From a virus (lineage: Duplodnaviria; Heunggongvirae; Uroviricota; Caudoviricetes): a stretch of DNA of 24,154 bases. Below are positions 1 to 16,450 of the stretch, one piece after another (the stretch's first letter is position 1; every line of letters begins with the position of its first letter). A program made the position numbers and the translations under genes. Location of the stretch: IMG/VR virus record IMGVR_UViG_648276670_000008, positions 1 to 24,154 of that record. One strand, given 5' to 3'. The notes under the pieces were generated by a model. It was not told where the DNA came from, ran no database searches, and saw only the letters and a list, made by a program, of their open reading frames with translations.

Positions 1-1158
1 ATGCTCACCGTTAAACAGATTGAAGCAGCAAAGCCGAAAGAAAAACCATACCGCCTACTCGATGGTAATGGCCTGTACCTTTATGTCCCTGTATCCGGAA
101 AAAAGGTCTGGCAGCTTCGCTACAAGATTGACGGTAAGGAGAAAATCCTGACCGTAGGAAAATATCCGCTAATGACTTTGCAGGAGGCAAGAGATAAAGC
201 ATGGACCGCGAGGAAAGACATCTCGGTTGGCATCGATCCGGTAAAAGCGAAAAAGGCTTCGTCTAACAACAATTCCTTTAGTGCGATTTACAAGGAATGG
301 TACGAGCACAAGAAGCAAGTCTGGTCAGTAGGCTATGCAAATGAACTTGCAAAAATGTTTGATGACGACATTTTACCTATCATCGGCGGCCTTGAAATTC
401 AGGATATTGAGCCGATGCAACTACTGGAAGTAATCCGCAGATTTGAAGATCGCGGGGCAATGGAGCGAGCCAACAAAGCCCGCAGAAGATGCGGCGAGGT
501 TTTCCGTTACGCTATTGTCACTGGTAGGGCTAAATATAACCCGGCACCTGACCTTGCAGACGCCATGAAAGGATACCGCAAGAAGAACTTCCCGTTTCTT
601 CCTGCAGACCAGATCCCGGCATTCAACAAAGAGCTGGCAACATTTTCAGGAAGTATCGTATCGCTCATTGCCACCAAGGTTTTACGCTATACAGCCCTAA
701 GAACGAAAGAGCTTCGTTCCATGCAATGGAAGAACGTCGATTTTGAAAACAGGATTATCACCATCGACGCCAGTGTGATGAAGGGACGCAAAATTCATGT
801 GGTCCCGATGTCAGACCAGGTGGTTGAACTTCTCACTACGCTAAGCTCTATCACCAAACCAGTATCAGAGTTTGTTTTTGCCGGGCGCAACGATAAGAAA
901 AAGCCAATCTGCGAGAACGCGGTGCTACTTGTGATCAAACAAATCGGCTATGAAGGTCTGGAAAGCGGTCACGGATTCAGGCATGAATTCAGCACGATTA
1001 TGAACGAGCACGAATGGCCCGCCGACGCCATTGAAGTGCAACTGGCACATGCTAACGGCGGTTCTGTGCGCGGGATTTACAACCATGCTCAGTATCTCGA
1101 TAAGCGCAGAGAAATGATGCAGTGGTGGGCGGACTGGCTTGATGAAAAGGTGAAGTGA
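1..1158 (+). CDS. int: Tyrosine integrase, P4-like family (site-specific recombinase)
   Basis: 385-aa ORF starting with ATG at nt 1. The N-terminus (MLTVKQIEAAKPKEKPYRLLDGNGLYLYV...WQLRYKIDGKEK) has the arm-domain pattern of P4-type integrases. The C-terminus has an H-x-x-R box (GHGFRHEF) and a likely tyrosine nucleophile in VRGIYNHAQYLDKR. The N-terminus looks complete although the gene begins at the window edge. Confidence 0.9.
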   Translation: MLTVKQIEAAKPKEKPYRLLDGNGLYLYVPVSGKKVWQLRYKIDGKEKILTVGKYPLMTLQEARDKAWTARKDISVGIDPVKAKKASSNNNSFSAIYKEWYEHKKQVWSVGYANELAKMFDDDILPIIGGLEIQDIEPMQLLEVIRRFEDRGAMERANKARRRCGEVFRYAIVTGRAKYNPAPDLADAMKGYRKKNFPFLPADQIPAFNKELATFSGSIVSLIATKVLRYTALRTKELRSMQWKNVDFENRIITIDASVMKGRKIHVVPMSDQVVELLTTLSSITKPVSEFVFAGRNDKKKPICENAVLLVIKQIGYEGLESGHGFRHEFSTIMNEHEWPADAIEVQLAHANGGSVRGIYNHAQYLDKRREMMQWWADWLDEKVK

Positions 1159-1395
1159 TCTACCTTAATAACTATCGAATAGCATAAATCCTTGCAATCC
1201 AGTACAAATCTTCTTGTGTCTGAATTTTAGACATTACTCATGCAAGTTATCGATCGCTAAGGATTTTGGTGATAGACTCCACATCGTTATAAAGGCTTGT
1301 TGTGCAGATTGGCTATCAACTACCACAATGATACTTGGTGTGCATCATACTAACATTGTTACTGATTATCACTTAAAATTAATTGGCATAAGGTA

Positions 1396-2463
1396 ATGAA
1401 CAGAAATAATTCATTCGATATTGCAAGACATATTGCTGCGCTAGCTGTTATTTTCAGCCATCACTTTGCATTCAATGGCATTCCTGAACCAAAAGTTTTA
1501 GGAATAACAAAACTTGGAACCTTTGCTGTTTTAGTTTTTTTCTCTATATCTGGGTATCTAATTGCAGGAAGCTATCTAAATAGCAGTTCTTTACAATCAT
1601 ACTATACAAAGCGTATAAAAAGAATCTTTCCAGCACTAATAGTATGCTCATTTGTCATGATATATATCATATGCCCTATTTTCGGTACAGGAAATGGCAT
1701 AGACTACATCTTATCAGAGAATGCATTTATTGCATTTTTAGACTACTCAACTCTTGGTTGGCATCCAAGCGACATAAATGGATTTGCCAGTAACTATATT
1801 CATAAGAATATGTTAAATGGAAGTTTATGGACTCTTGGATTTGAGTTTACAGCCTATGTGTTATTATCAATAATTTTATTTAGAAAGAAAAATATCATAG
1901 CATCAACATTTTTTGCTATTTGCTTTTTTATTGTTATCCAGTTATCCATTTTGAATGGCATAAAAATACCTCACACAGGTGATCTTAATAGGCTATCTCT
2001 TCTATGCACTACGTTTTTATGTGGTTCTTTGTTATATATTACAAGAAGTTATTGGTCCACAACAAGTGCAAAAATCACTCTAATAGTATTAGCTTTATCA
2101 TGTGCATTATTTATAAGTGAAAAAAATGAATATGATCTAATGTTTTATATTTCTGTTCCATTCTTTATAGTTCCATTATGCACATTGTTTACAGACAAAA
2201 TAATCAACGGCAAGTTTGATATATCTTATGGGATGTATATTTATGCTTATCCGATTCAGCAAATAATTGTAAACAAAGCTAACCTAGGATTTTATGGTTC
2301 ACTGTTTACGTCTTTATTATTAATAATTATTTTAGCTTGCGCATCGTGGTTACTTATTGAAAAGAGATTTTTGGTAAAAAGTAAAAGAAAGCAAAGGAAA
2401 TGTCGCATGTATGTTAAGCACTCTCTTATCTGCACATTGTATATATTGGTGAGCATTATATAA
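1396..2463 (+). CDS. Acyltransferase family 3 integral membrane protein, putative O-antigen O-acetyltransferase (Oac/OafA-like)
   Basis: 355-aa, very hydrophobic multi-TM ORF with ATG start. It carries AT3-type motifs (VLVFFSISGYLIAGSY and RIKRIFPAL) and a size close to phage Oac. The coding sequence is very AT-rich. Confidence 0.8.
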   Translation: MNRNNSFDIARHIAALAVIFSHHFAFNGIPEPKVLGITKLGTFAVLVFFSISGYLIAGSYLNSSSLQSYYTKRIKRIFPALIVCSFVMIYIICPIFGTGNGIDYILSENAFIAFLDYSTLGWHPSDINGFASNYIHKNMLNGSLWTLGFEFTAYVLLSIILFRKKNIIASTFFAICFFIVIQLSILNGIKIPHTGDLNRLSLLCTTFLCGSLLYITRSYWSTTSAKITLIVLALSCALFISEKNEYDLMFYISVPFFIVPLCTLFTDKIINGKFDISYGMYIYAYPIQQIIVNKANLGFYGSLFTSLLLIIILACASWLLIEKRFLVKSKRKQRKCRMYVKHSLICTLYILVSII

Positions 2464-2633
2464 TGTATTATTGTTGCAGCCTGATACATTATAAAGCAGA
2501 CATTTATGCTTGATGTTTTTTAGGTGTTGGTTTTCATAATTCACAACCACACACGTATAACAAACATTAAGACATATCGTCCAAAAGATAGTTTATGTTA
2601 CAATTTTAAAGAATAAACTTAAGATAATTGCAT

Positions 2634-2948
2634 ATGTTCAAAATTTTTTTAAAAGGAACCAGCGTACCAAAAGAAATTCTGTCCTTTCACAGGAGAAGTC
2701 ATGAAAGCGTACTTCCAAAGAGAGTAGAATTTACAAGAGCTGTTCTTATAACAGAAAAATATGGCGAGATCCATGTTAGACCAATTTATGGAATATTAAA
2801 AGCAAACAGTATTTACATTGATGAAATTGGCGGATGTATAGTAAAAGGCGGTATTAATGGTACAATTATTCACAACCTGCCAATATTTAACTTACCATCA
2901 ATAACAATAATGTTATTAATTGTAGCTTTGGCGTTAAATTATGTTTAA
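2634..2948 (+). CDS. Hypothetical protein (weak call) in AT-rich spacer
   Basis: The ORF-track start at 2628 is TTG; the first ATG is at 2634, giving 104 aa. There is no convincing Shine-Dalgarno. The stop overlaps the wzx-like start by 8 nt. No recognisable family. Confidence 0.2.
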   Translation: MFKIFLKGTSVPKEILSFHRRSHESVLPKRVEFTRAVLITEKYGEIHVRPIYGILKANSIYIDEIGGCIVKGGINGTIIHNLPIFNLPSITIMLLIVALALNYV

Positions 2949-4176
2949 TAAATTTGCTGTCCTCAGAAATTTTGCATCGCTAGGGTTAATGCAGGTCATT
3001 AACTATGTGCTTCCTATTGTTATAATACCGTTCCTGGTTAATAAAATAGGAATTTATAATGTAGGCTTAATTGCAACATTCACCGCCATAGCGGCATATA
3101 TGCAGCTAGTTATAGATTATGGCTTCAATCTTTCTGCAACAAGAAATATATCAAAGGACGGATATGATGATTATCATGCATCGATAATAAGCAGTTCTGT
3201 TTTTGTCATAAAGGTGACAATGTCATTAGCATTAATTGCATTATCATTTTTCATTATGAAATTGGCGTCAAACTCAGAAGAACATATAATAACATTTATG
3301 TTTACAGTTGGCATTGTTGTTTTTCAGTCTTTATTTCCAGTTTGGCATTTTCAAGCCGCAGAAAGAATGCACTACATAACAATGTGTAATGGTGTACCAA
3401 AATTGATATCAGCCTGCATGATTTTTTACTTTGTAAGCTCTCCAGGTGATACATGGAAGGTGCAGGCATGCTTTATGTTAGGAGCCGCAGCATCTTTTAT
3501 TTTATCTTTGTTTATTTTGAAATCTAAATTTAATTTTAGGTTATTGATATCATTCACTGAATGCAAAAATCAGATTATTGATGGGTATGCTATTTTTTTA
3601 GCACGATTGGCGTCAGGGCTATACAAAAATTTCAATGTGCTTATTCTCGGAGCATTTGCTGGAACTGCGGCAGTAGGAACTTATTCTATCGCAGAAAGAA
3701 TAATAAGAAGCGCTCAAATGGTTCAGAATGTAGTTGGTGATACTCTTTACCCTTTATTCTCTAAAGAATTTACTGGCAATAAATTATTTTTCAAACACGC
3801 AGCAGATAAATACAAGTGGCATATAATAATATTTTACACTCTTGCATCACTAGCTATTTTCTACCTCTCTGGAATAATTGGGAAAATAATGGGTGGGGCA
3901 TCAGCAGATAATGTATCCTCTTGCCTTAAAATAATGTCAATCGCCTTTCTTTTTGGCGGGATGAACTACGTTTTAGCTATACTTGGATTAACATCTTGTG
4001 GGTATGCCAAACAATTTTCATTGTGCGTAATATCGGCAGGTTTGTTTAATGTTCTATGTGCTACTTTTTTATCTTTTTTCTTTTCTTATTATGGAACTTC
4101 AGTAGCTCTTGTTTTAAGCGAGTTTTTTCTCCTTTGCTTTGTTATTTTTTATTCTAAAAGGACTGGTATACTATGA
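2941..4176 (+). CDS. wzx: Wzx-like polysaccharide/O-unit flippase (polysaccharide biosynthesis protein, MOP/PST superfamily)
   Basis: 411-aa multi-TM protein. The N-terminal region (LMQVINYVLPIVIIPFLVNKIGIYNVG) resembles the conserved Wzx/PST N-terminus. Very AT-rich. Its stop overlaps the downstream GT2 start (ATGA at 4173-4176). Confidence 0.75.
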   Translation: MFNKFAVLRNFASLGLMQVINYVLPIVIIPFLVNKIGIYNVGLIATFTAIAAYMQLVIDYGFNLSATRNISKDGYDDYHASIISSSVFVIKVTMSLALIALSFFIMKLASNSEEHIITFMFTVGIVVFQSLFPVWHFQAAERMHYITMCNGVPKLISACMIFYFVSSPGDTWKVQACFMLGAAASFILSLFILKSKFNFRLLISFTECKNQIIDGYAIFLARLASGLYKNFNVLILGAFAGTAAVGTYSIAERIIRSAQMVQNVVGDTLYPLFSKEFTGNKLFFKHAADKYKWHIIIFYTLASLAIFYLSGIIGKIMGGASADNVSSCLKIMSIAFLFGGMNYVLAILGLTSCGYAKQFSLCVISAGLFNVLCATFLSFFFSYYGTSVALVLSEFFLLCFVIFYSKRTGIL

Positions 4177-5066
4177 CTCCATTTACTACTGTCTTGGTTA
4201 CATATGCTGATAGAGGCCACCTGTTAAAACAAGTTGTATCATCAGTAGTATCATCCGGGTGTGATAATATAATTATTATAGATAATGGGAGTCATGAGAG
4301 TAGCAAGAAAATAATAAACTCGATGCCTGTTAATTATAGTGACATAAAATTCACTATTCATAAAAATGAAAAAAATGAAGGCTCCGCGATTGCATTCGGC
4401 ATTGGGATGGATCTGGCATCAAGTAATGAAAACAAAAATGAAATAGTGTTATTTCTGGATGATGACAATCTACCTAAAGATGGAGCAATTCAAGATGCCA
4501 TCAAATTCTCATTGTCAGATAATGAGAATAAAAATGTTTACTTTTTGCTCCGTGAAGACAGGCCGCACTATATTGAATTTGTAAGAACAAAAAACCAAGA
4601 TGTTCTCCTTGGAGAAAAAAACTCTTTTATGTCATTCACTTTGAAAAAATACTTAAAAAGCATAGTAAATAAGCTTAACAAAACAGAAATACAAGAAAAG
4701 TATGATTCATTCAGCGATAGTTGCATTCAAATCCCTTGCGGTCCATACGGAGGAATGTTAACAAAAAAATCAATCTTATCCAATGGGATAAGACCATTCA
4801 AAGATATGGTGTTATATTTTGACGATACAAAATATACTTATGATCTATCATTATCTGGAGTAAAGCTATTTCTTTTGACAAAATGTTTCATTAATGATAT
4901 TGATGATTCATGGTCAGCGGTTAAAACAAAAAAACATCCTCACCACTCTTTGAGGCTGGTGAGTTTAAAATATCACATACAATTAGAAATAGGGTGTTTT
5001 TTGAACTTTACGCGACAACAAACAATGTGCCAATATATGTTGTTAATATATTTTTCTTCATGTTAA
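4173..5066 (+). CDS. Glycosyltransferase family 2, WbbL-like (soluble, cytoplasmic-face type)
   Basis: 297-aa ORF. N-terminal GT-A pattern (TTVLVTYADRGHLLKQVVSSV...IIIIDNGS), a DxD-like LFLDDDN motif, and a C-terminal region resembling WbbL-type rhamnosyltransferases (GGMLTKKSILSNGIRPF...VLYFDDTKYTYDLSLSGVKLF). No C-terminal TM anchor of the GtrB type is evident. Translationally coupled to wzx. Confidence 0.7.
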   Translation: MTPFTTVLVTYADRGHLLKQVVSSVVSSGCDNIIIIDNGSHESSKKIINSMPVNYSDIKFTIHKNEKNEGSAIAFGIGMDLASSNENKNEIVLFLDDDNLPKDGAIQDAIKFSLSDNENKNVYFLLREDRPHYIEFVRTKNQDVLLGEKNSFMSFTLKKYLKSIVNKLNKTEIQEKYDSFSDSCIQIPCGPYGGMLTKKSILSNGIRPFKDMVLYFDDTKYTYDLSLSGVKLFLLTKCFINDIDDSWSAVKTKKHPHHSLRLVSLKYHIQLEIGCFLNFTRQQTMCQYMLLIYFSSC

Positions 5067-5188: not shown

Positions 5189-7093
5189 TTAAAACTCTGG
5201 AGCATACGTTCCTGAGACAAAAATAGTGGCACCCAGTGATTTAATAAAATCAGGTTTCACCAGAAGGCCACGCAAAGATACGGCAACCCATTTGCTGGTT
5301 TGAACGTTTGCTGCCTGTACCAAAGTTTTTGTAGTTGAGGGAGCATACACACCAACAGTTGCCTGCGGGTCTTCTAACGTTGTAGTGGTGTAATAAGATG
5401 CTATTGGTATTCTGGTTGTATGACCATGAGTTAATGTGACATTCCCATTTCCGGTTGGTTCTGCATTGACAATTGATGATACCCAAGATGGTGGTATTGT
5501 AGGGGGTCTCCCATACCTAATCTCCCCAGTATCTACATTAACTATAATTTCTAGATCTGCGTAGATTGACACTCGTAAGTTGTAGTCTTTCCCTACGTTG
5601 AACCTGTCAGCAATTGCGTAAAGTCCGGTAGTAAGAGATGATCTATCCATGTCCGCAGTGAAGTCAAACCAACACGCTGCGTTATCAGAAACTGTAAATA
5701 AAAGAGAGTTATCATCTTCAGCCACAGCAACCTTACAAAAATTAGAAGGACGAATGACGCCAGTATCGTTATTAATATTTAAAATTTGCCATGATGAGCT
5801 CGAAGATGCATAACGCGCGGCAGCTGCGCAGTGTTTTGCTCGTAACCAAGGAGCGATGCCATTTGCCGTATACTGCATAAAGTCATTGACTGTCTTTGTC
5901 TTTGTTCCTCCAGCTTCCACTGACCAGAGTCCTCGGGCAGCGCCAGCCCCCATTGTGTTATAACCTTTTTGGGTATAATGCACACCTTCTGTACCAACGT
6001 TTCCATCGCGATTCAAAAAAGATGGGCAGCCATCAAAAGCTGTAACAGCAATATCTCTACCATTGACAACGTAACGCTGTGCGTTTTGAATAGTTTGCCA
6101 AGAATATTCTGGTCTATTTTTAGGGCACCCTACCGTACAGTTCGCGAATCTTGCCATAGGTATATCTGAAGATAGATCATCTATAAGTTTCACGAAAAGT
6201 CCGCGATAAGTATCAAATGATGTGCCATTTAGTTGATCTGTTTCCCCTTGGTGGAAAAGAACGTATACTTTACCTACAGGAAGCTCCTGAGTATTCATTC
6301 TTGCAAGTGTGTTATTAACAGACGACACCAAAAGCTCATAATAACCATCACCAACTGGTGATTTAGATAATTGAGAAATTGATGTTGCTCCACGTCCACA
6401 ATGTACAACTACAGCTCCCCTTCCGCTTAAACGATACCATTCATTGGCAAACTCCCCCCAGGCATGCCCTGAGGATGCAACTCCCGATGAACTAACCATA
6501 TTCTGAATTATTGGCTTTATAGTTCCATCCCTGAAATCGTACATTAACGATTTTGGAAGAGGGTCAGGAAAGCCAGATGTATCACCTGATAAAATAGCCT
6601 CGCCTGCACTATTTGACTGCCCATACGTAACAAATATATCGTATACATCTGGTGACTCAAGATATTCTGTCGCAATAACATTACTTGCTATTTTTGATGC
6701 TGTTACTCCAGATATTATTGCTGAACTATTATTTTCTGATAGCCTTCTTTCTAATTGATCTGGATCATACTTCAATACATTTGGAAAATAGAACTGCTGC
6801 GAACCATACGCATCATAAACAGCCATAGAATGTCCTTGCACGGTAACGAACTTGGCAATCTGTCCGTTATATACCGGATATCCAGCAGCGTTAATGGTGA
6901 TTGGTTGAGAAACAGGAACGTGAGAACCGTCCTCGCTCTCCATATAAACCTGAATCTGGTTTTCAGGATTTACAGGATCAGTGTCAATCTGACCGATATA
7001 AATTTTACCATTGGCATTAGCTTTAAATGAACGAGATAAAGTAAATAATTGACTTGGTTGCGATACAACGATATTTGGCGTGATATCTGGCAT
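5189..7093 (-). CDS. 9: Tailspike protein: P22 gp9-type head-binding domain fused to a SASA/SGNH-type esterase-like receptor domain
   Basis: 634-aa ORF with ATG and GGAG Shine-Dalgarno. The first ~115 aa closely match the P22 tailspike N-terminal head-binding domain as I remember it (…[24 protein letters not shown]…TVQGHSMA…NVLKYDPDQ). The remainder is unrelated to the P22 beta-helix and carries esterase-like motifs GQSN (158-161), QGETD (282-286) and a His in GVHYTQ (372). Confidence 0.9.
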
Positions 7094-12628: not shown

Positions 12629-14046
12629 TACTCAATCCTTATCTGAGCGCCAGACAGAGTGACAGGTGACTTCGTGATAACGCGCAATTTGAAGCCGACA
12701 TTTTTCCTGATGCGCCCTACTCGCTTCCACAAAACACGCTTGTCGTAAACGAACGGTTCATTCTGTTCAATCATCTGCTCACGACCGTAATTGATGCCGT
12801 CAGTGGTTGCTGAGAGGAACAGGCGGTCGGCGTACTGTGCAACGCCAGTTGACGATTCAACCTCAAGGTCGAAAACTCTGGCGTTATCCGCTTTGAACAG
12901 TGGAGTAAACAGCAGGTGTTCCTGTTGCTTGTCGTACTGGCTACTGATATCGAATTGCAATTTCCCGGTCACGGACTCCAGCTTATCGCCGCACGTTATC
13001 TGATTGCCTTCGTAAATGAAGTCGATAGCGCGGTACACATCGTCATACAGGCCTGTTTTCAGTACACACCATTGCGGACCATTGGCACTTGAAGATGCGT
13101 CGTACACGAGGACATGACGCGGAAGATGGATAATCAGCAACTCATGCGCATCAAACCGCAACGATTCCATCACGCCATCAGCCAGTTCATCAGCAGTGTA
13201 GGAGCGTAGTATTTTCTCAATGCTCGCGCTGGCGATTGGTGATACCTGACCGGAGCCGATGATGTATACAGACGGCGCACCCGTTGCCGGATTGCTGATG
13301 AACGCATAAGAATCAGCGAATGGCGTTTTGCAGTAAGTCCCGGCAATGCCTTTCTGCACCATAAGAGATGGCTGTGCGACATACAAAGCGGCACCAACAG
13401 TGGTTGCGCCCGTCAGGGAGAAATATTCAATCGTCGATGAACCAAAGCAGACGATGAAGTCTCGCCATGTGCCGATGCCGATGATGCCGTCCGGCTGAGA
13501 CTCGGCACGATATTGTGCGCTGTAACGGTCAGGATGCGATTCATCTTCAAGGTCAGTGATAAACCATGAATCAGTGCCGTCTTTTGACCACGCATAACGC
13601 CCGCGTAAGCGCGTAATGTCACGAACAGAACCTAACTCATACTGCGTGAATCCGCTGTCTGTAGGCCAGTTTGAGACTGTTTTAACCGTGCCATCATAAC
13701 GATACTCGACCAGTTGACCATTAACGCCTACCGCCTGTGATGTCCGACCATGCGCCATTGATACACGACCACTTCCGGCGACATCACCGACTTCACTTTC
13801 GCCTTTGTAAAGCTTCCCACCACACACGCGATAAACAGCATTCTGCGCCATGTTGTACTCGACACCGCGCGATATACCGTTCACATCAGAACGTTTGGCA
13901 ATACCCGGGAATGAGCGAAGATATCCGCTGCTGTTAAGGATTTCTTTGGGTGTAGCCAGCATATTCACTGGCAGATAGTCGATATAGTCGGCGTTTCTGA
14001 AGTCTTTGCCGACACCTTTCATAAGCGGAAGTTGCTGAATCGGCAT
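12628..14046 (-). CDS. 10: Tail hub/nozzle protein, P22 gp10 homologue
   Basis: 472-aa ORF matching P22 gp10 over the full length as I remember it ([11 protein letters not shown]…), with the same length. ATG overlaps the gene 4 stop. Confidence 0.9.
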
Positions 14047-14546
14047 TATTCGCTCCCGTTATCGCAAGGTTCCTTTCGGTGGAAGTAATTCCAACCGTTC
14101 CACTTCGCCAACTGGTTACCGCTACCAACAGGCATACGGTTTGGATAACCGGACTTACATTTAGCGGCTTTTGCTCTGTCCATTGCAGACAGTTTGACGA
14201 GTCGCTCTTTCCCGTATCTGGCAGTGGTTATAAGTTTTGCAGACGCTTCCAGCGCATAATCTGGAGCAATGCGGCAGGCAAGGTTGAAAATGACGGCATT
14301 AATAGCGTTATTTGATAAGCCGTGCTCATCGCCCGGATCCGGAGCAACATCTGCATCAGCAAAAATGTAGCCAACGTTGATACCAGGTGACGCATCACCG
14401 CCAAGCCATTCAGCCATCATCATTTCAAGGTCGTTAACGCCGTCTTCCATAGACTGCGGTTCGACATCGGTTAACGTGGCATTTGATGCCACACCGAGCT
14501 TACGTAATGCCGCAAGAACTAAATCACCCTTCGTTGTCAGGTTCAT
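14046..14546 (-). CDS. 4: Head-to-tail adaptor, P22 gp4 homologue
   Basis: The ORF-track start at 14606 is TTG. The ATG at 14546 gives 166 aa ([21 protein letters not shown]…), matching the P22 gp4 N-terminus and length. Confidence 0.9.
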
Positions 14547-15111
14547 CTGCTGCCGCCTTAGGTTTTCGACCAGGCTTTTTACGCTGTTTTTCTTCTGGCT
14601 CTGCAATGGCCGGACGCAAACTCAGGAGTCGTCCAAGAACATCATTTGCTTCATGACCATCCCACTCTTTCCCGAACTCAAGCTCAGTACCTTCAGGAAG
14701 GAACTCGATTTCTTCAACAGGTAGGTGATAAGTGATTTCGCCTTCTGGAGTGGTGATACCAGCAATAATCCAGCCATCCCACTCTTCACCGTCACTGTGT
14801 TTGCGAGACCACCACGAAAGCTCAGCGTAAGCATGCATCAGCGATGAGAAGAGGCGCACTCGGTGAGCGTAAAGCTCGTTAAAAGTGTGATAACCGTCGG
14901 ACACTTCGCCCATATCAACTGGGGAAGTTTCACCTACGCCAACACTCCCAATTTGATCACCAACAAGAGGATCATCAGGAACATCGTCAGGGTGCTTATA
15001 CCAGCCATTTGCTAAGTGCACAGCTACATCATCAGGATCAACGGTTTTCGTTTTCAGCTTGCGCCCCCATATTTTGGTATCTCCGCCAGCCTGAAAAATC
15101 ATTACGCTCAT
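14524..15111 (-). CDS. Hypothetical acidic protein between coat and gp4 genes (position of Sf6 gene 6)
   Basis: The ORF-track start at 15291 is TTG and overlaps the coat gene, so I reject it. The internal ATG at 15111 has a GGAGAT Shine-Dalgarno and sits just downstream of an intrinsic terminator. 195 aa, acidic, with a basic Lys/Arg/Pro-rich tail. No recognisable family. Confidence 0.6.
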
Positions 15112-15122
15112 TGGTATCTCCA

Positions 15123-15150
15123 ATAGAAAAGGGAGCCGAAGCTCCCTCTG
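15123..15150 (-). terminator. Intrinsic terminator immediately after the coat gene
   Basis: On the minus-strand transcript: GGGAGC-UUCG-GCUCCC (6-bp GC stem, UUCG tetraloop) followed by UUUUCUAUU. It lies between the coat stop (15155) and the start of the next ORF (15111). Confidence 0.6.
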
Positions 15151-15154
15151 GTTA

Positions 15155-16450
15155 TCACGCGGTCTGGTTAGGCAGACCAACACCAATTGCCTCTGGTCGT
15201 ACAGCACATGCTGAATACCACACAGCAATACGGCACTTACCAGACAGAGTGTTGATATCACCCTGCGTTGCGAAGATGCCGTTAACACCAATACCAGGAA
15301 TGCTGAAGGAAGACGTTTTCATGCCAGCAAACAGTTCATGGGTTACCGGGATCGGCTGAGACAGCAGACGGATTGAGTCATCAGCCCAGAACACGTTAGC
15401 GGTGGTCGTTGCCACGTTCAGAACGTTTACCGGAGTGGTATCAGCAAGAGAGGTGTTTACGTTAGCGTAAGCCTTCTCTTCTTTTGTCAGTGAAGCGTCA
15501 TCAAGCGCAATCGGCTTCGGCGTGATTTCGATGTGAGTACCATCGATCACACGGGTGATTGAGAAAGTCGCGTCATCAGTCAGCACGTTCTTCGCCATCT
15601 GAGACAGGAATTTCACGCCAGTGAAGCTGATTTTGTCGCCGCGCTTAAATCCGGTGGTGGAGGATACGGTCACCGTTGCAACACGGTTGTCGACGTTCTC
15701 TTTGTTACCATCGGTATCAAGAGTGTATGCCTGCGGCTTAAACTTCTGCGCACCAGAAACAGTTACACCAGTAGCGGTTGACTTGGTAACTGCCGGAAGT
15801 TTAGGTGAGCGAAGAATTTCATCAAAGCCAGCAATCTGACGCTGAATAGTACCGTTGCGATACGCTTCTTCAGGAACTCGCCCGAAGATGTCGCCATCTA
15901 CCAGGTTGCGGCCTGCTTTGCGGTAATCGTCAGGGTTCAGGAAGTAACTGATGCCCATATCGCGGTTTAGCTCACGGGAGAACATCAGGCGCTCTGCATC
16001 AGACACAAAATCCCAGCCAGACAGGCCAGTAGATGGACCAATTGCGCGGGTATCGTGAACAACAAGCGAGCCCATTTCAGTTGCCTGTTTGGCAATCGCT
16101 GACTCAATGTTATTCGCCAGTTTTTTGGCGGATGCCTGGATGCGGCGACGGTAAGAACGCTCATCACGCAGGTCATCTGCACGAAGCTCGAAGAAATCGT
16201 TATCCGGATCGCCCATGTTGCACTTCACGGAGAGTTCCAGAATCCCGGTTGCGTTGCCAGTTAAATCCCAGCCAGTCTGGGTTGGCGCTTCCTGCTCAAC
16301 AGGCATCCACACGGTGTTGCTTGAACGCTGCATGGATTCTGCCGGAGGGGTGTATTTTGTCACTTTGGACGCCATTGGCGTCAGGTTCTGGACGGTTTCG
16401 ATGATTTCATCCAGAGCATACGTGACCAGTTGACCTTCATTTAATGCCAT
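15155..16450 (-). CDS. 5: Major coat protein, P22 gp5 homologue
   Basis: 431-aa ORF matching P22 coat protein across the full length as I remember it (MALNEGQ…GLPNQTA). ATG overlaps the scaffold stop. Confidence 0.95.

Follow-up and report, generated by a model that had tools for sequence, protein, structure and literature searches.

A WDGH domain inserted into a P22-like gene between coat and gene 4, a candidate nucleotide-signal counter-defence accessory

The gene between coat and gene 4

The stretch of DNA analysed here, referred to as the window, comprises 24,154 nucleotides (nt) of a P22-like tailed phage of E. coli (positions 1 to 24,154 of IMG/VR record IMGVR_UViG_648276670_000008). 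Between its coat gene and gene 4 lies a minus-strand open reading frame (ORF) for a protein of 195 amino acids (aa). We identify this gene as a new member of a known, uncharacterised family that carries a WDGH domain. An initial annotation made from the sequence alone had given the ORF the coordinates listed below, a length of 195 aa, a Shine-Dalgarno of its own and a place directly after the coat hairpin. All of this is borne out by the following features.

15122..15147, minus strand: post-coat stem-loop AGGGAGC-UUCG-GCUCCCU (15130-15147) with U-rich tract (15122-15129)
15118..15121, minus strand: Shine-Dalgarno GGAG, 6 nt 5' of the ATG, read from the sequence
14524..15111, minus strand: complete coding sequence, 195 codons plus TAA, orthologue of Orf186/gene 6/BTP1_006
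14980..15111, minus strand: N-terminal domain (N-domain), residues 1-44, predicted β-hairpin and helix, ending GW..HP; orf69-type module common to the short forms
14917..14979, minus strand: acidic disordered linker, residues 45-65, with 4 D/E and no K/R
14617..14916, minus strand: WDGH domain, residues 66-165 (Pfam match 68-165), with the EWDGH motif
14527..14616, minus strand: C-terminal tail, residues 166-195, made of an EP linker, a basic core and an acidic end
14604..15116, minus strand: mosaic cassette from just 5' of the start codon to about residue 169, differing from APC_JM3.2/IME10-type phages
14524..14546, minus strand: 23-nt overlap between the 3' end of the ORF and the 5' end of gene 4 (ATG 14546)

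The ATG occupies 15111-15109 and the TAA 14526-14524. In a program-made ORF list the frame reaches back into the coat gene, to a TTG at 15291. Three observations speak for ATG 15111 as the start. The GGAG (15121-15118) sits 6 nt upstream, the protein aligns from residue 1 onward with P22 orf69 and with an 88-aa short form found in related phages, and it is between 15116 and 15117 that homology to the nearest phages is lost. RefSeq gene calls disagree on this point. A 100% identical copy (NZ_CP027457; locus L092, 15001-15315) is called as 104 aa from M92, which halves the WDGH domain, homologue P0016 is called from M67 (133 aa), and further copies are called at the full 195 aa. The RefSeq product names vary between 'hypothetical protein' and 'WDGH domain-containing protein'.

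The stem-loop and U-rich tract follow the coat gene, whose last position is 15155. The hairpin consists of a G+C-rich stem of 7 bp and a UUCG loop, and the 76 nt around it fold with −21.8 kcal/mol (z = −2.65). Its equivalent is annotated in P22 (as a stem_loop) and in Sf6 (as the 't coat' terminator). A consensus terminator scan did not report it, the sole listed site lying on the plus strand inside the coat gene. The element is likely a partial terminator or an mRNA 3' stabiliser, and lowered expression of the ORF behind it, jointly with genes 4, 10 and 26, is plausible from its placement. The promoter scan found no sigma-70-like promoter near the ORF, and expression is therefore expected with the late operon. 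Downstream, gene 4 (14046-14546) measures 501 nt, the same length as in P22. The RefSeq copy identical to the window ORF has the same gene 4 overlap, and in P22 orf69 overlaps gene 4 by 17 nt. From the sequence, the 23-nt overlap could serve translational coupling. Expression in the lysogen as a moron was also considered and set aside, as there is no promoter-like site and the gene goes unmentioned in the BTP1 transcriptome paper. The BTP1 antisense RNA STnc6030 maps to the tailspike/ejection genes and not to this slot.

A three-part protein under purifying selection

The protein has an isoelectric point (pI) of 4.72, with 38 D/E against 20 K/R. The acidic body, the basic Lys/Arg/Pro tail and the segment singled out by the initial annotation are all present. 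PDDVPDDP corresponds to residues 41-48, the conserved segment to residues 74-84 and the core of the basic tail to residues 175-185. The segment at residues 74-84 is the core motif of the WDGH family.

We utilised AlphaFold2 to predict the structure of the protein from 61 homologues. The model has a predicted local distance difference test score (pLDDT) of 87 for the whole protein. The N-domain reaches 88-97, residues 49-60 of the linker fall below 50, and the tail is of low confidence. The WDGH domain is predicted to fold into one long helix, a sheet of three strands and two short helices, and a separate model of this domain reaches a pLDDT of 93.8. The length of the linker varies among homologues (alignment A1).

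Ratios of non-synonymous to synonymous substitution (dN/dS) were calculated with the Nei-Gojobori method between the window ORF and orthologues in viral contigs. The whole ORF yielded values of 0.14–0.19, with 0.15–0.22 in the N-domain, 0.05 in the WDGH domain and 0.17–0.38 in the tail. This confirms that the ORF is a real gene under strong purifying selection and not a chance ORF.

Orthologues in Salmonella phages

The initial annotation had been unable to assign the protein to any family. Profile searches now place it in PHROG 3769, the Orf186/gene 6 group, which it matches end to end (E 3.7e-101), and residues 68-165 in the Pfam family PF25311, WDGH (E 1.3e-39; 134.8 bits with a cut-off of 27; model positions 1-97 of 97). 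A match to a known morphogenetic protein, which would have made the gene an ordinary one, was sought in Pfam, PHROG and fold searches; these showed no similarity to any structural protein family.

With tblastn, the protein is 61–63% identical to Orf186 of phages L and ST64T, gene 6 of epsilon34 and g341c, ORF54 of ST104 and BTP1_006 (STMMW_03821). All these Salmonella-phage orthologues sit between coat and gene 4. They share with the window gene the order of the slot (coat, hairpin, gene, gene 4), the three-part architecture and the membership in PHROG 3769, and their WDGH domains are 76–77% identical to that of the window. However, the host is E. coli in our case, the linker and N-domain have diverged, and the tail is of the E. 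coli type.

The gene as such was already known: annotations of its orthologues in Salmonella phages as "conserved hypothetical" go back to the early 2000s. The phage L paper describes orf186 as interrupting synteny, with "detailed function unknown" (PMC8022706). Our literature search found no functional study of the WDGH domain, Orf186 or BTP1_006. In E. coli, a protein 99% identical to that of the window represents a cluster with 1,929 member sequences, and the ORF DNA is present at a coverage of at least 80% in 42 of 5,426 complete genomes.

A slot gene with a mobile insert

The initial annotation held that P22 passes directly from gene 5 to gene 4. This is not the case: in the P22 record (BK000583), orf69 is annotated between the two genes. 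Its product of 69 residues consists of the N-domain (BLASTP 2e-8) joined directly to the basic tail PRKGRKPKAVSDADKD, without a WDGH domain. Residues 1-44 of the window protein match phrog_1175 (E 1.9e-14), which also holds P22 orf69 and the 88-aa short form. The P22 homologue has been described as internally deleted and not essential in the laboratory (PMC2629481, citing Eppler 1991).

The phages nearest to the window in DNA are APC_JM3.2, IME10 and HZ41, which are 98–99% identical to it in coat and gene 4. Their slot protein is the short form of 88 aa, composed of the N-domain, an (EP)n repeat and the same C-terminus as in the window ORF. The last 23 residues of the window protein (173-195) are identical to the tail of this short form (APC_JM3.2_22). 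Megablast covered 40% of the query in two pieces, and blastn places the break points at 14603/14604 and 15116/15117, with flanking matches at 14302-14603 and 15117-15400. Up to position 14603 the window DNA is 99% identical to APC_JM3.2. The short forms (phrog_1175, 65–88 aa) thus share the slot, the N-domain and the basic tail with the window protein, but carry (EP)n or a short linker instead of the WDGH domain, and they are the commoner type. A profile search with the N-domain returned 375 proteins, and the best 120 of the 375 were all short, at 47–88 aa. Other inserts within the orf69 scaffold were looked for among these best 120 matches, which turned out to be short forms only.

Another viral contig provides further evidence of modular exchange. 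In IMGVR_UViG_2636415690_000005 (locus L025, ORF at about 4001-4309), the WDGH domain is 91% identical to that of the window and the N-domain is essentially unrelated, with non-synonymous differences (pN) of 0.48 as compared to 0.04 in the WDGH domain. This mosaicism within the gene shows that the N-domain and WDGH modules recombine independently. A Glu-Pro repeat of variable copy number marks the junction between body and tail (about 14590-14616). It reads AEPEE in the window, AEPEPEPEE in P0016 and (EP)10 in APC_JM3.2, whose annotation marks it as a repeat_region (L001, 3195-3245). The repeat falls at the mosaic break point on the right-hand side and may help the WDGH cassette to be gained or lost.

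Sf6 gene 6 and HKbT of HK620 (phrog_3251) occupy the same slot, and likewise encode a small N-domain and then a KRGRK tail whose codons run into the gene 4 homologue. The initial annotation had pointed to an extra gene at this position in Sf6-like phages. The positional part of this statement holds, as Sf6 gene 6 (61 aa) lies in the slot. It lacks a WDGH domain, however, and homology between its N-domain and that of the window protein is unsupported (hhalign probability 0.8%, different PHROG). Sf6 gene 6 corresponds to L093, 2186-2371, and P22 orf69 to L007, 1636-1845. The slot genes of PHROGs 3251, 1175 and 3769 all close with K/R-G-R-K and a brief acidic or polar stretch, which extends across the gene 4 start, and this K/R-G-R-K tail is the most constant feature of the slot.

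The window protein has all three traits of a slot gene, namely the position between coat and gene 4 with an overlap, the orf69-type N-domain, and a (K/R)xGRKPK tail with an acidic end. Judged by sequence comparison, the gene is the small slot gene common to the P22-like phages checked, in which a WDGH module has been inserted and now separates the N-domain from the basic tail. This modular anatomy, in which an orf69-type scaffold bears a mobile insert, is the new aspect of the present analysis. Phages with the long and the short form are otherwise 98–99% identical around the slot and therefore represent natural, near-isogenic test pairs.

Conservation, fold and spread of the WDGH domain

A WDGH profile search recovered 4,542 clusters at 50% identity with E ≤ 1e-3, including 676 with E ≤ 1e-30. 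The domain occurs at 572 IMG/VR loci and in 200 phage genome records (Listeria 54, Bacillus 45, Salmonella 35, Streptococcus 13, Lactococcus 13, Klebsiella 8, Staphylococcus 5, and others); in all 200 records it is annotated as hypothetical. Many members are stand-alone proteins of 110–160 aa. Examples are gp21 of Listeria phage A511 and gp134 of Bacillus phage Nate. Whereas most WDGH members stand alone in early or replication regions, the window copy is embedded in an orf69-type scaffold within a late operon.

Among diverse members, the invariant or near-invariant positions are H75, H83, H105, H129, H153, D72, D107, D151, D157, E79, R84, R161, Y81, Y128, W100, W150 and several Gly. The window protein retains all such columns of alignments A1, A2 and A4, and the signature SDGYHTFxELYxHR ... 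HxDG ... TYHLP ... WDGH is intact. Its WDGH domain has a pI of 4.46, with 21 D/E, 6 K/R and 6 His. Copies from Listeria and E. coli phages are about 45% identical to each other. From this identity and the invariant polar and aromatic set, we infer a universal small-molecule target rather than a host-specific protein.

Searching the predicted structure against BFVD with Foldseek gave template modelling (TM) scores of 0.78–0.94 to WDGH proteins of Klebsiella and Lactococcus phages and no fold relative outside the WDGH family at E < 1e-3. Profile searches of PDB sequences likewise yielded nothing significant, with PARG at E 1.2 and H-NOX at E 0.25. The WDGH fold, as modelled, thus appears to have no solved or characterised relative detectable by the searches used.

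Several larger proteins also contain the domain. In P0052, P0070 and P0076 (307–333 aa), it lies between an unannotated N-terminal domain of about 90 aa and a conserved, unannotated C-terminal domain (..YxYAA(S/T)(I/V)N(L/T)(P/S)(Q/R)G....DGI..). It is also found within gp37 of Erwinia phage Pavtok (405 aa) and within larger proteins of Klebsiella phages.

Fusions to Sequestin and genomic neighbourhoods

The only recurrent annotated fusion partner of WDGH is PF21825 (Pfam crAss001_48, now labelled Sequestin). The fusion was seen in eight proteins, seven of about 250 fetched family members plus L063. Sequestin is C-terminal to WDGH in P0077, P0083, P0101, P0107, P0267, P0335 and L063, and N-terminal in P0314. 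In P0267, P0314 and P0335, the Sequestin domain shares only 36–44% identity with those of P0077, P0083, P0101 and P0107. Both domain orders and this low identity indicate more than one fusion event. P0101 combines a Tad2-like domain, WDGH and Sequestin in one protein, encoded between lysis genes and a cluster of genes, the last of them being the portal gene, in a prophage with a P22 portal. At L063 (IMGVR_UViG_3300012893_000007, 2790-4516), a 297-aa gene ending in a Tad2-like domain is followed after 54 nt by a 261-aa WDGH and Sequestin fusion. Neither the N-terminal 216 residues encoded by the first gene nor the N-terminal 89 residues encoded by the second have a Pfam match. The pair looks like a small anti-signalling gene pair. 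No fusion of WDGH to Acb4 was seen among the family members examined.

The discovery of Sequestin itself rested on its being fused to Tad2 and Acb4, and the protein was shown to sequester 3'cADPR, a signal of Thoeris (Tal et al., bioRxiv 10.1101/2025.07.12.664507). A 2026 preprint confirmed Sequestin structurally and described hot spots of anti-signalling genes. Recurrent fusion of the kind used by Tal et al. 2025 is found among the relatives of the window protein, which itself carries neither Sequestin nor Tad2.

WDGH genes occupy diverse positions in phage genomes. They are part of late or head operons in P22-like phages, in Streptococcus phage Javan318, where WDGH lies between the portal and a minor capsid gene, and at locus L008. 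In Staphylococcus phage phiSP15-1, WDGH adjoins a dimeric dUTPase. In Bacillus phage Nate, the stand-alone gp134 overlaps the start of the NADAR gene gp135 by 56 nt (L002, 3878-5078). NADAR enzymes act on ADP-ribose. WDGH is also present in the related Bacillus phages Tsamsa and MrDarsey. At L009-L011 it is found among orphan methylases. In 6 of about 24 diverse IMG/VR loci, on aquatic viral contigs, WDGH lies downstream of a DnaB-like helicase gene, with ligase, UvsX, dUTPase, methylase and family 2 (GT2) glycosyltransferases nearby. A clean anti-defence island around WDGH was looked for and rejected, as the 24 diverse viral contigs show mixed replication, glycosyltransferase and methylase contexts. 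One WDGH protein is fused to DUF4406, which we take to belong to the nucleoside deoxyribosyltransferase-like superfamily.

A putative nucleotide-signal counter-defence accessory

Taking the architecture, homology, selection and fusions together, we tentatively favour the view that the gene encodes a non-structural accessory protein. Its WDGH domain would bind, and probably hydrolyse, a nucleotide-derived small molecule, most likely an immune signal. We regard this as a realistic possibility that falls somewhat short of an even chance. The protein could be understood as two layers. The first would be an orf69-type slot protein, made of the 44-residue N-domain and a basic (K/R)-G-R-K-P-K tail running into gene 4. 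This layer was checked in P22, epsilon34, L and E. coli P22-like phages, the Sf6 gene being only positionally analogous. The second would be the WDGH module of 100 residues, mobile and usually stand-alone, which is inserted between N-domain and tail. The module would be the working part, with a ligand common to very different bacteria, and its hydrolysis could be aided by metal ions. The most likely target would be a nucleotide immune signal of the Thoeris or CBASS kind. Structural proteins often trigger signalling defences, and a counter-defence factor could be co-produced with them from the late operon.

This proposal may be compared with known phage anti-signalling proteins. Sequestin (PF21825) and Tad2 (PF11195) are likewise small phage accessory modules, they are fused to WDGH or lie adjacent to it (L063), and the logic that led to the discovery of Sequestin applies equally here. 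However, WDGH is acidic and rich in His and Asp, and is no sponge with a cationic pocket. Known sponges are homo-oligomers with positively charged pockets at their protomer interfaces (bioRxiv 10.1101/2025.07.12.664507). The acidic WDGH domain fits metal-mediated phosphate chemistry better than such a pocket. The proposed mode of action resembles that of Acb1, Apyc1 and Acb5, small phage enzymes that destroy a nucleotide signal, and Acb5 relies on conserved His, Arg and Trp. No homology of WDGH to these three was detected. By sequence or fold, the window protein is not a member of the Tad1, Tad2, Acb2, Acb4, Sequestin or Lockin families, and it has no profile or fold match to HD, MBL, calcineurin-like, 2H, MazG or Nudix proteins. 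Three identities were tried and rejected. Acb5 differs in its fold description and its hosts (Streptomyces, Mycobacterium, some Bacillus and Haloarcula; 96 INPHARED genomes). Lockin, compared by description, is an all-beta hexamer that is absent from INPHARED. The N-domain of the RyR-Tad protein gp68 is an 86-aa, five-stranded, domain-swapped sheet.

In a bolder version of this idea, WDGH would be an unrecognised fold without a solved relative, its members being small metal-dependent enzymes or high-affinity binders. These would destroy or capture a nucleotide immune signal, such as a derivative of ADP-ribose made by a domain of the Toll/interleukin-1 receptor (TIR) type or a cyclic oligonucleotide, and in the P22-like phages would be deployed from the late operon while capsid proteins accumulate. 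We consider this version rather doubtful.

Several observations weigh against a counter-defence role. The fusions to a sponge are confined to the eight proteins named above, and most multi-domain members carry unannotated partners. Neighbours such as the DnaB-like helicase, dUTPase, ligase, UvsX and glycosyltransferases fit nucleotide or DNA metabolism equally well. Profile, PDB-sequence and fold searches gave no similarity to a known sponge or signal-degrading enzyme, the acidic surface is unlike the positively charged pockets of sponges, and no experiment on any WDGH protein was found in the literature. Moreover, the counter-defence view leaves the N-domain and the basic tail unexplained; a part in oligomerisation or localisation is speculation.

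The closest competitor is supported by these neighbourhoods. WDGH could be an enzyme of the nucleotide pool or of DNA metabolism that aids replication, for example a pyrophosphatase or phosphatase with a house-cleaning role, or an enzyme that takes part in modifying nucleotides or DNA, and the P22-like copy would then be a moron in the slot. The invariant His/Asp/Glu/Arg set looks enzyme-like, the domain is acidic, and the helicase upstream in a quarter of the diverse loci, with replication and modification genes nearby, the dUTPase neighbour in phiSP15-1, the overlap with the NADAR gene in Nate and the single DUF4406 fusion all agree with such a function. Yet the sole recurrent annotated fusion partner is an immune-signal sponge and no replication enzyme, and the late or morphogenetic operons of the P22-like phages, Javan318 and L008 imply an odd timing for replication supply. 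WDGH also shows no resemblance to known nucleotide hydrolases such as MazG, HD, Nudix or dUTPase proteins, and the helicase neighbourhoods may stem from one phage lineage. We therefore judge a metabolic enzyme unlikely, albeit with an appreciable chance of being correct. A nuclease or DNA-binding protein is a good deal less probable. Here the tail would anchor the protein to DNA and WDGH would cut or modify nucleic acid, its conserved His and Asp possibly forming a metal nuclease site. The tail (KKPGRKPK) does resemble an AT-hook, and homologue P0035 has the canonical RGRP core (KKRGRPTK). In the window protein, however, PGRKPK at residues 180-185 lacks the R-G-R-P core and even its GRP part. 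Moreover, the tail belongs to the slot scaffold, being present in the WDGH-less orf69 and short forms and absent from nearly all other WDGH proteins, and no HNH, PD-(D/E)xK, GIY-YIG or other nuclease family was matched.

The initial annotation had left decoration, injection and host interaction as three open roles, of which the evidence favours the last. A virion or morphogenetic protein could act as a decoration, as a helper of head completion, or as a protein that is packaged and ejected, with the basic tail binding DNA or the portal/gp4 region and WDGH being cargo for the next host. The location in the head-completion cluster with late expression and the gene 4 overlap would suit this, as would the K/R-G-R-K tail found in each of the examined slot genes (P22 orf69, short forms and Sf6 gp6) and the WDGH gene between portal and minor capsid gene in Javan318. 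In contrast, virion gels of epsilon34 match those of P22 except for Dec, gp13 and the tailspike, and lack an additional band at about 21 kDa, and P22 can do without orf69 (PMC2629481). A low-copy packaged protein may be compatible with these gels. The phage L paper treats orf186 as an interruption of synteny (PMC8022706). The domain is furthermore widespread in early and replication regions of unrelated phages and as small stand-alone proteins, and shows no similarity to Dec or any structural protein family. A structural role is accordingly improbable, and a counter-defence accessory is more likely than a virion part. Finally, one could regard the ORF as decaying filler in a recombination hot spot, since the slot is mosaic with long and short forms, P22 has lost the WDGH domain, and RefSeq gives an identical sequence three different starts. 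This is hardly credible and effectively refuted by the selection analysis, and the large cluster of 99% identical proteins, the high-confidence AlphaFold models and the fully intact catalytic-looking residues speak against it as well.

A counter-defence or nucleotide-processing activity thus has a concrete candidate in a large uncharacterised family found in Listeria, Bacillus, Streptococcus and enterobacterial phages. A function for it would also fill a long-standing gap in the annotation of P22-like phages, namely the role of the gene that lies between coat and gene 4.

The left end of the window

Among the E. coli genomes of the collection searched, none reaches a coverage of 80% of the window. 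At its left end (1-5066), five plus-strand ORFs run opposite to the late operon, beside a tailspike-sized ORF on the minus strand (5189-7093). Related E. coli prophages are annotated in this region with glucosyltransferase-domain proteins and a phage head-binding-domain protein, which suggests that the left end is a module for O-antigen modification and integration. The region differs among otherwise similar prophages.

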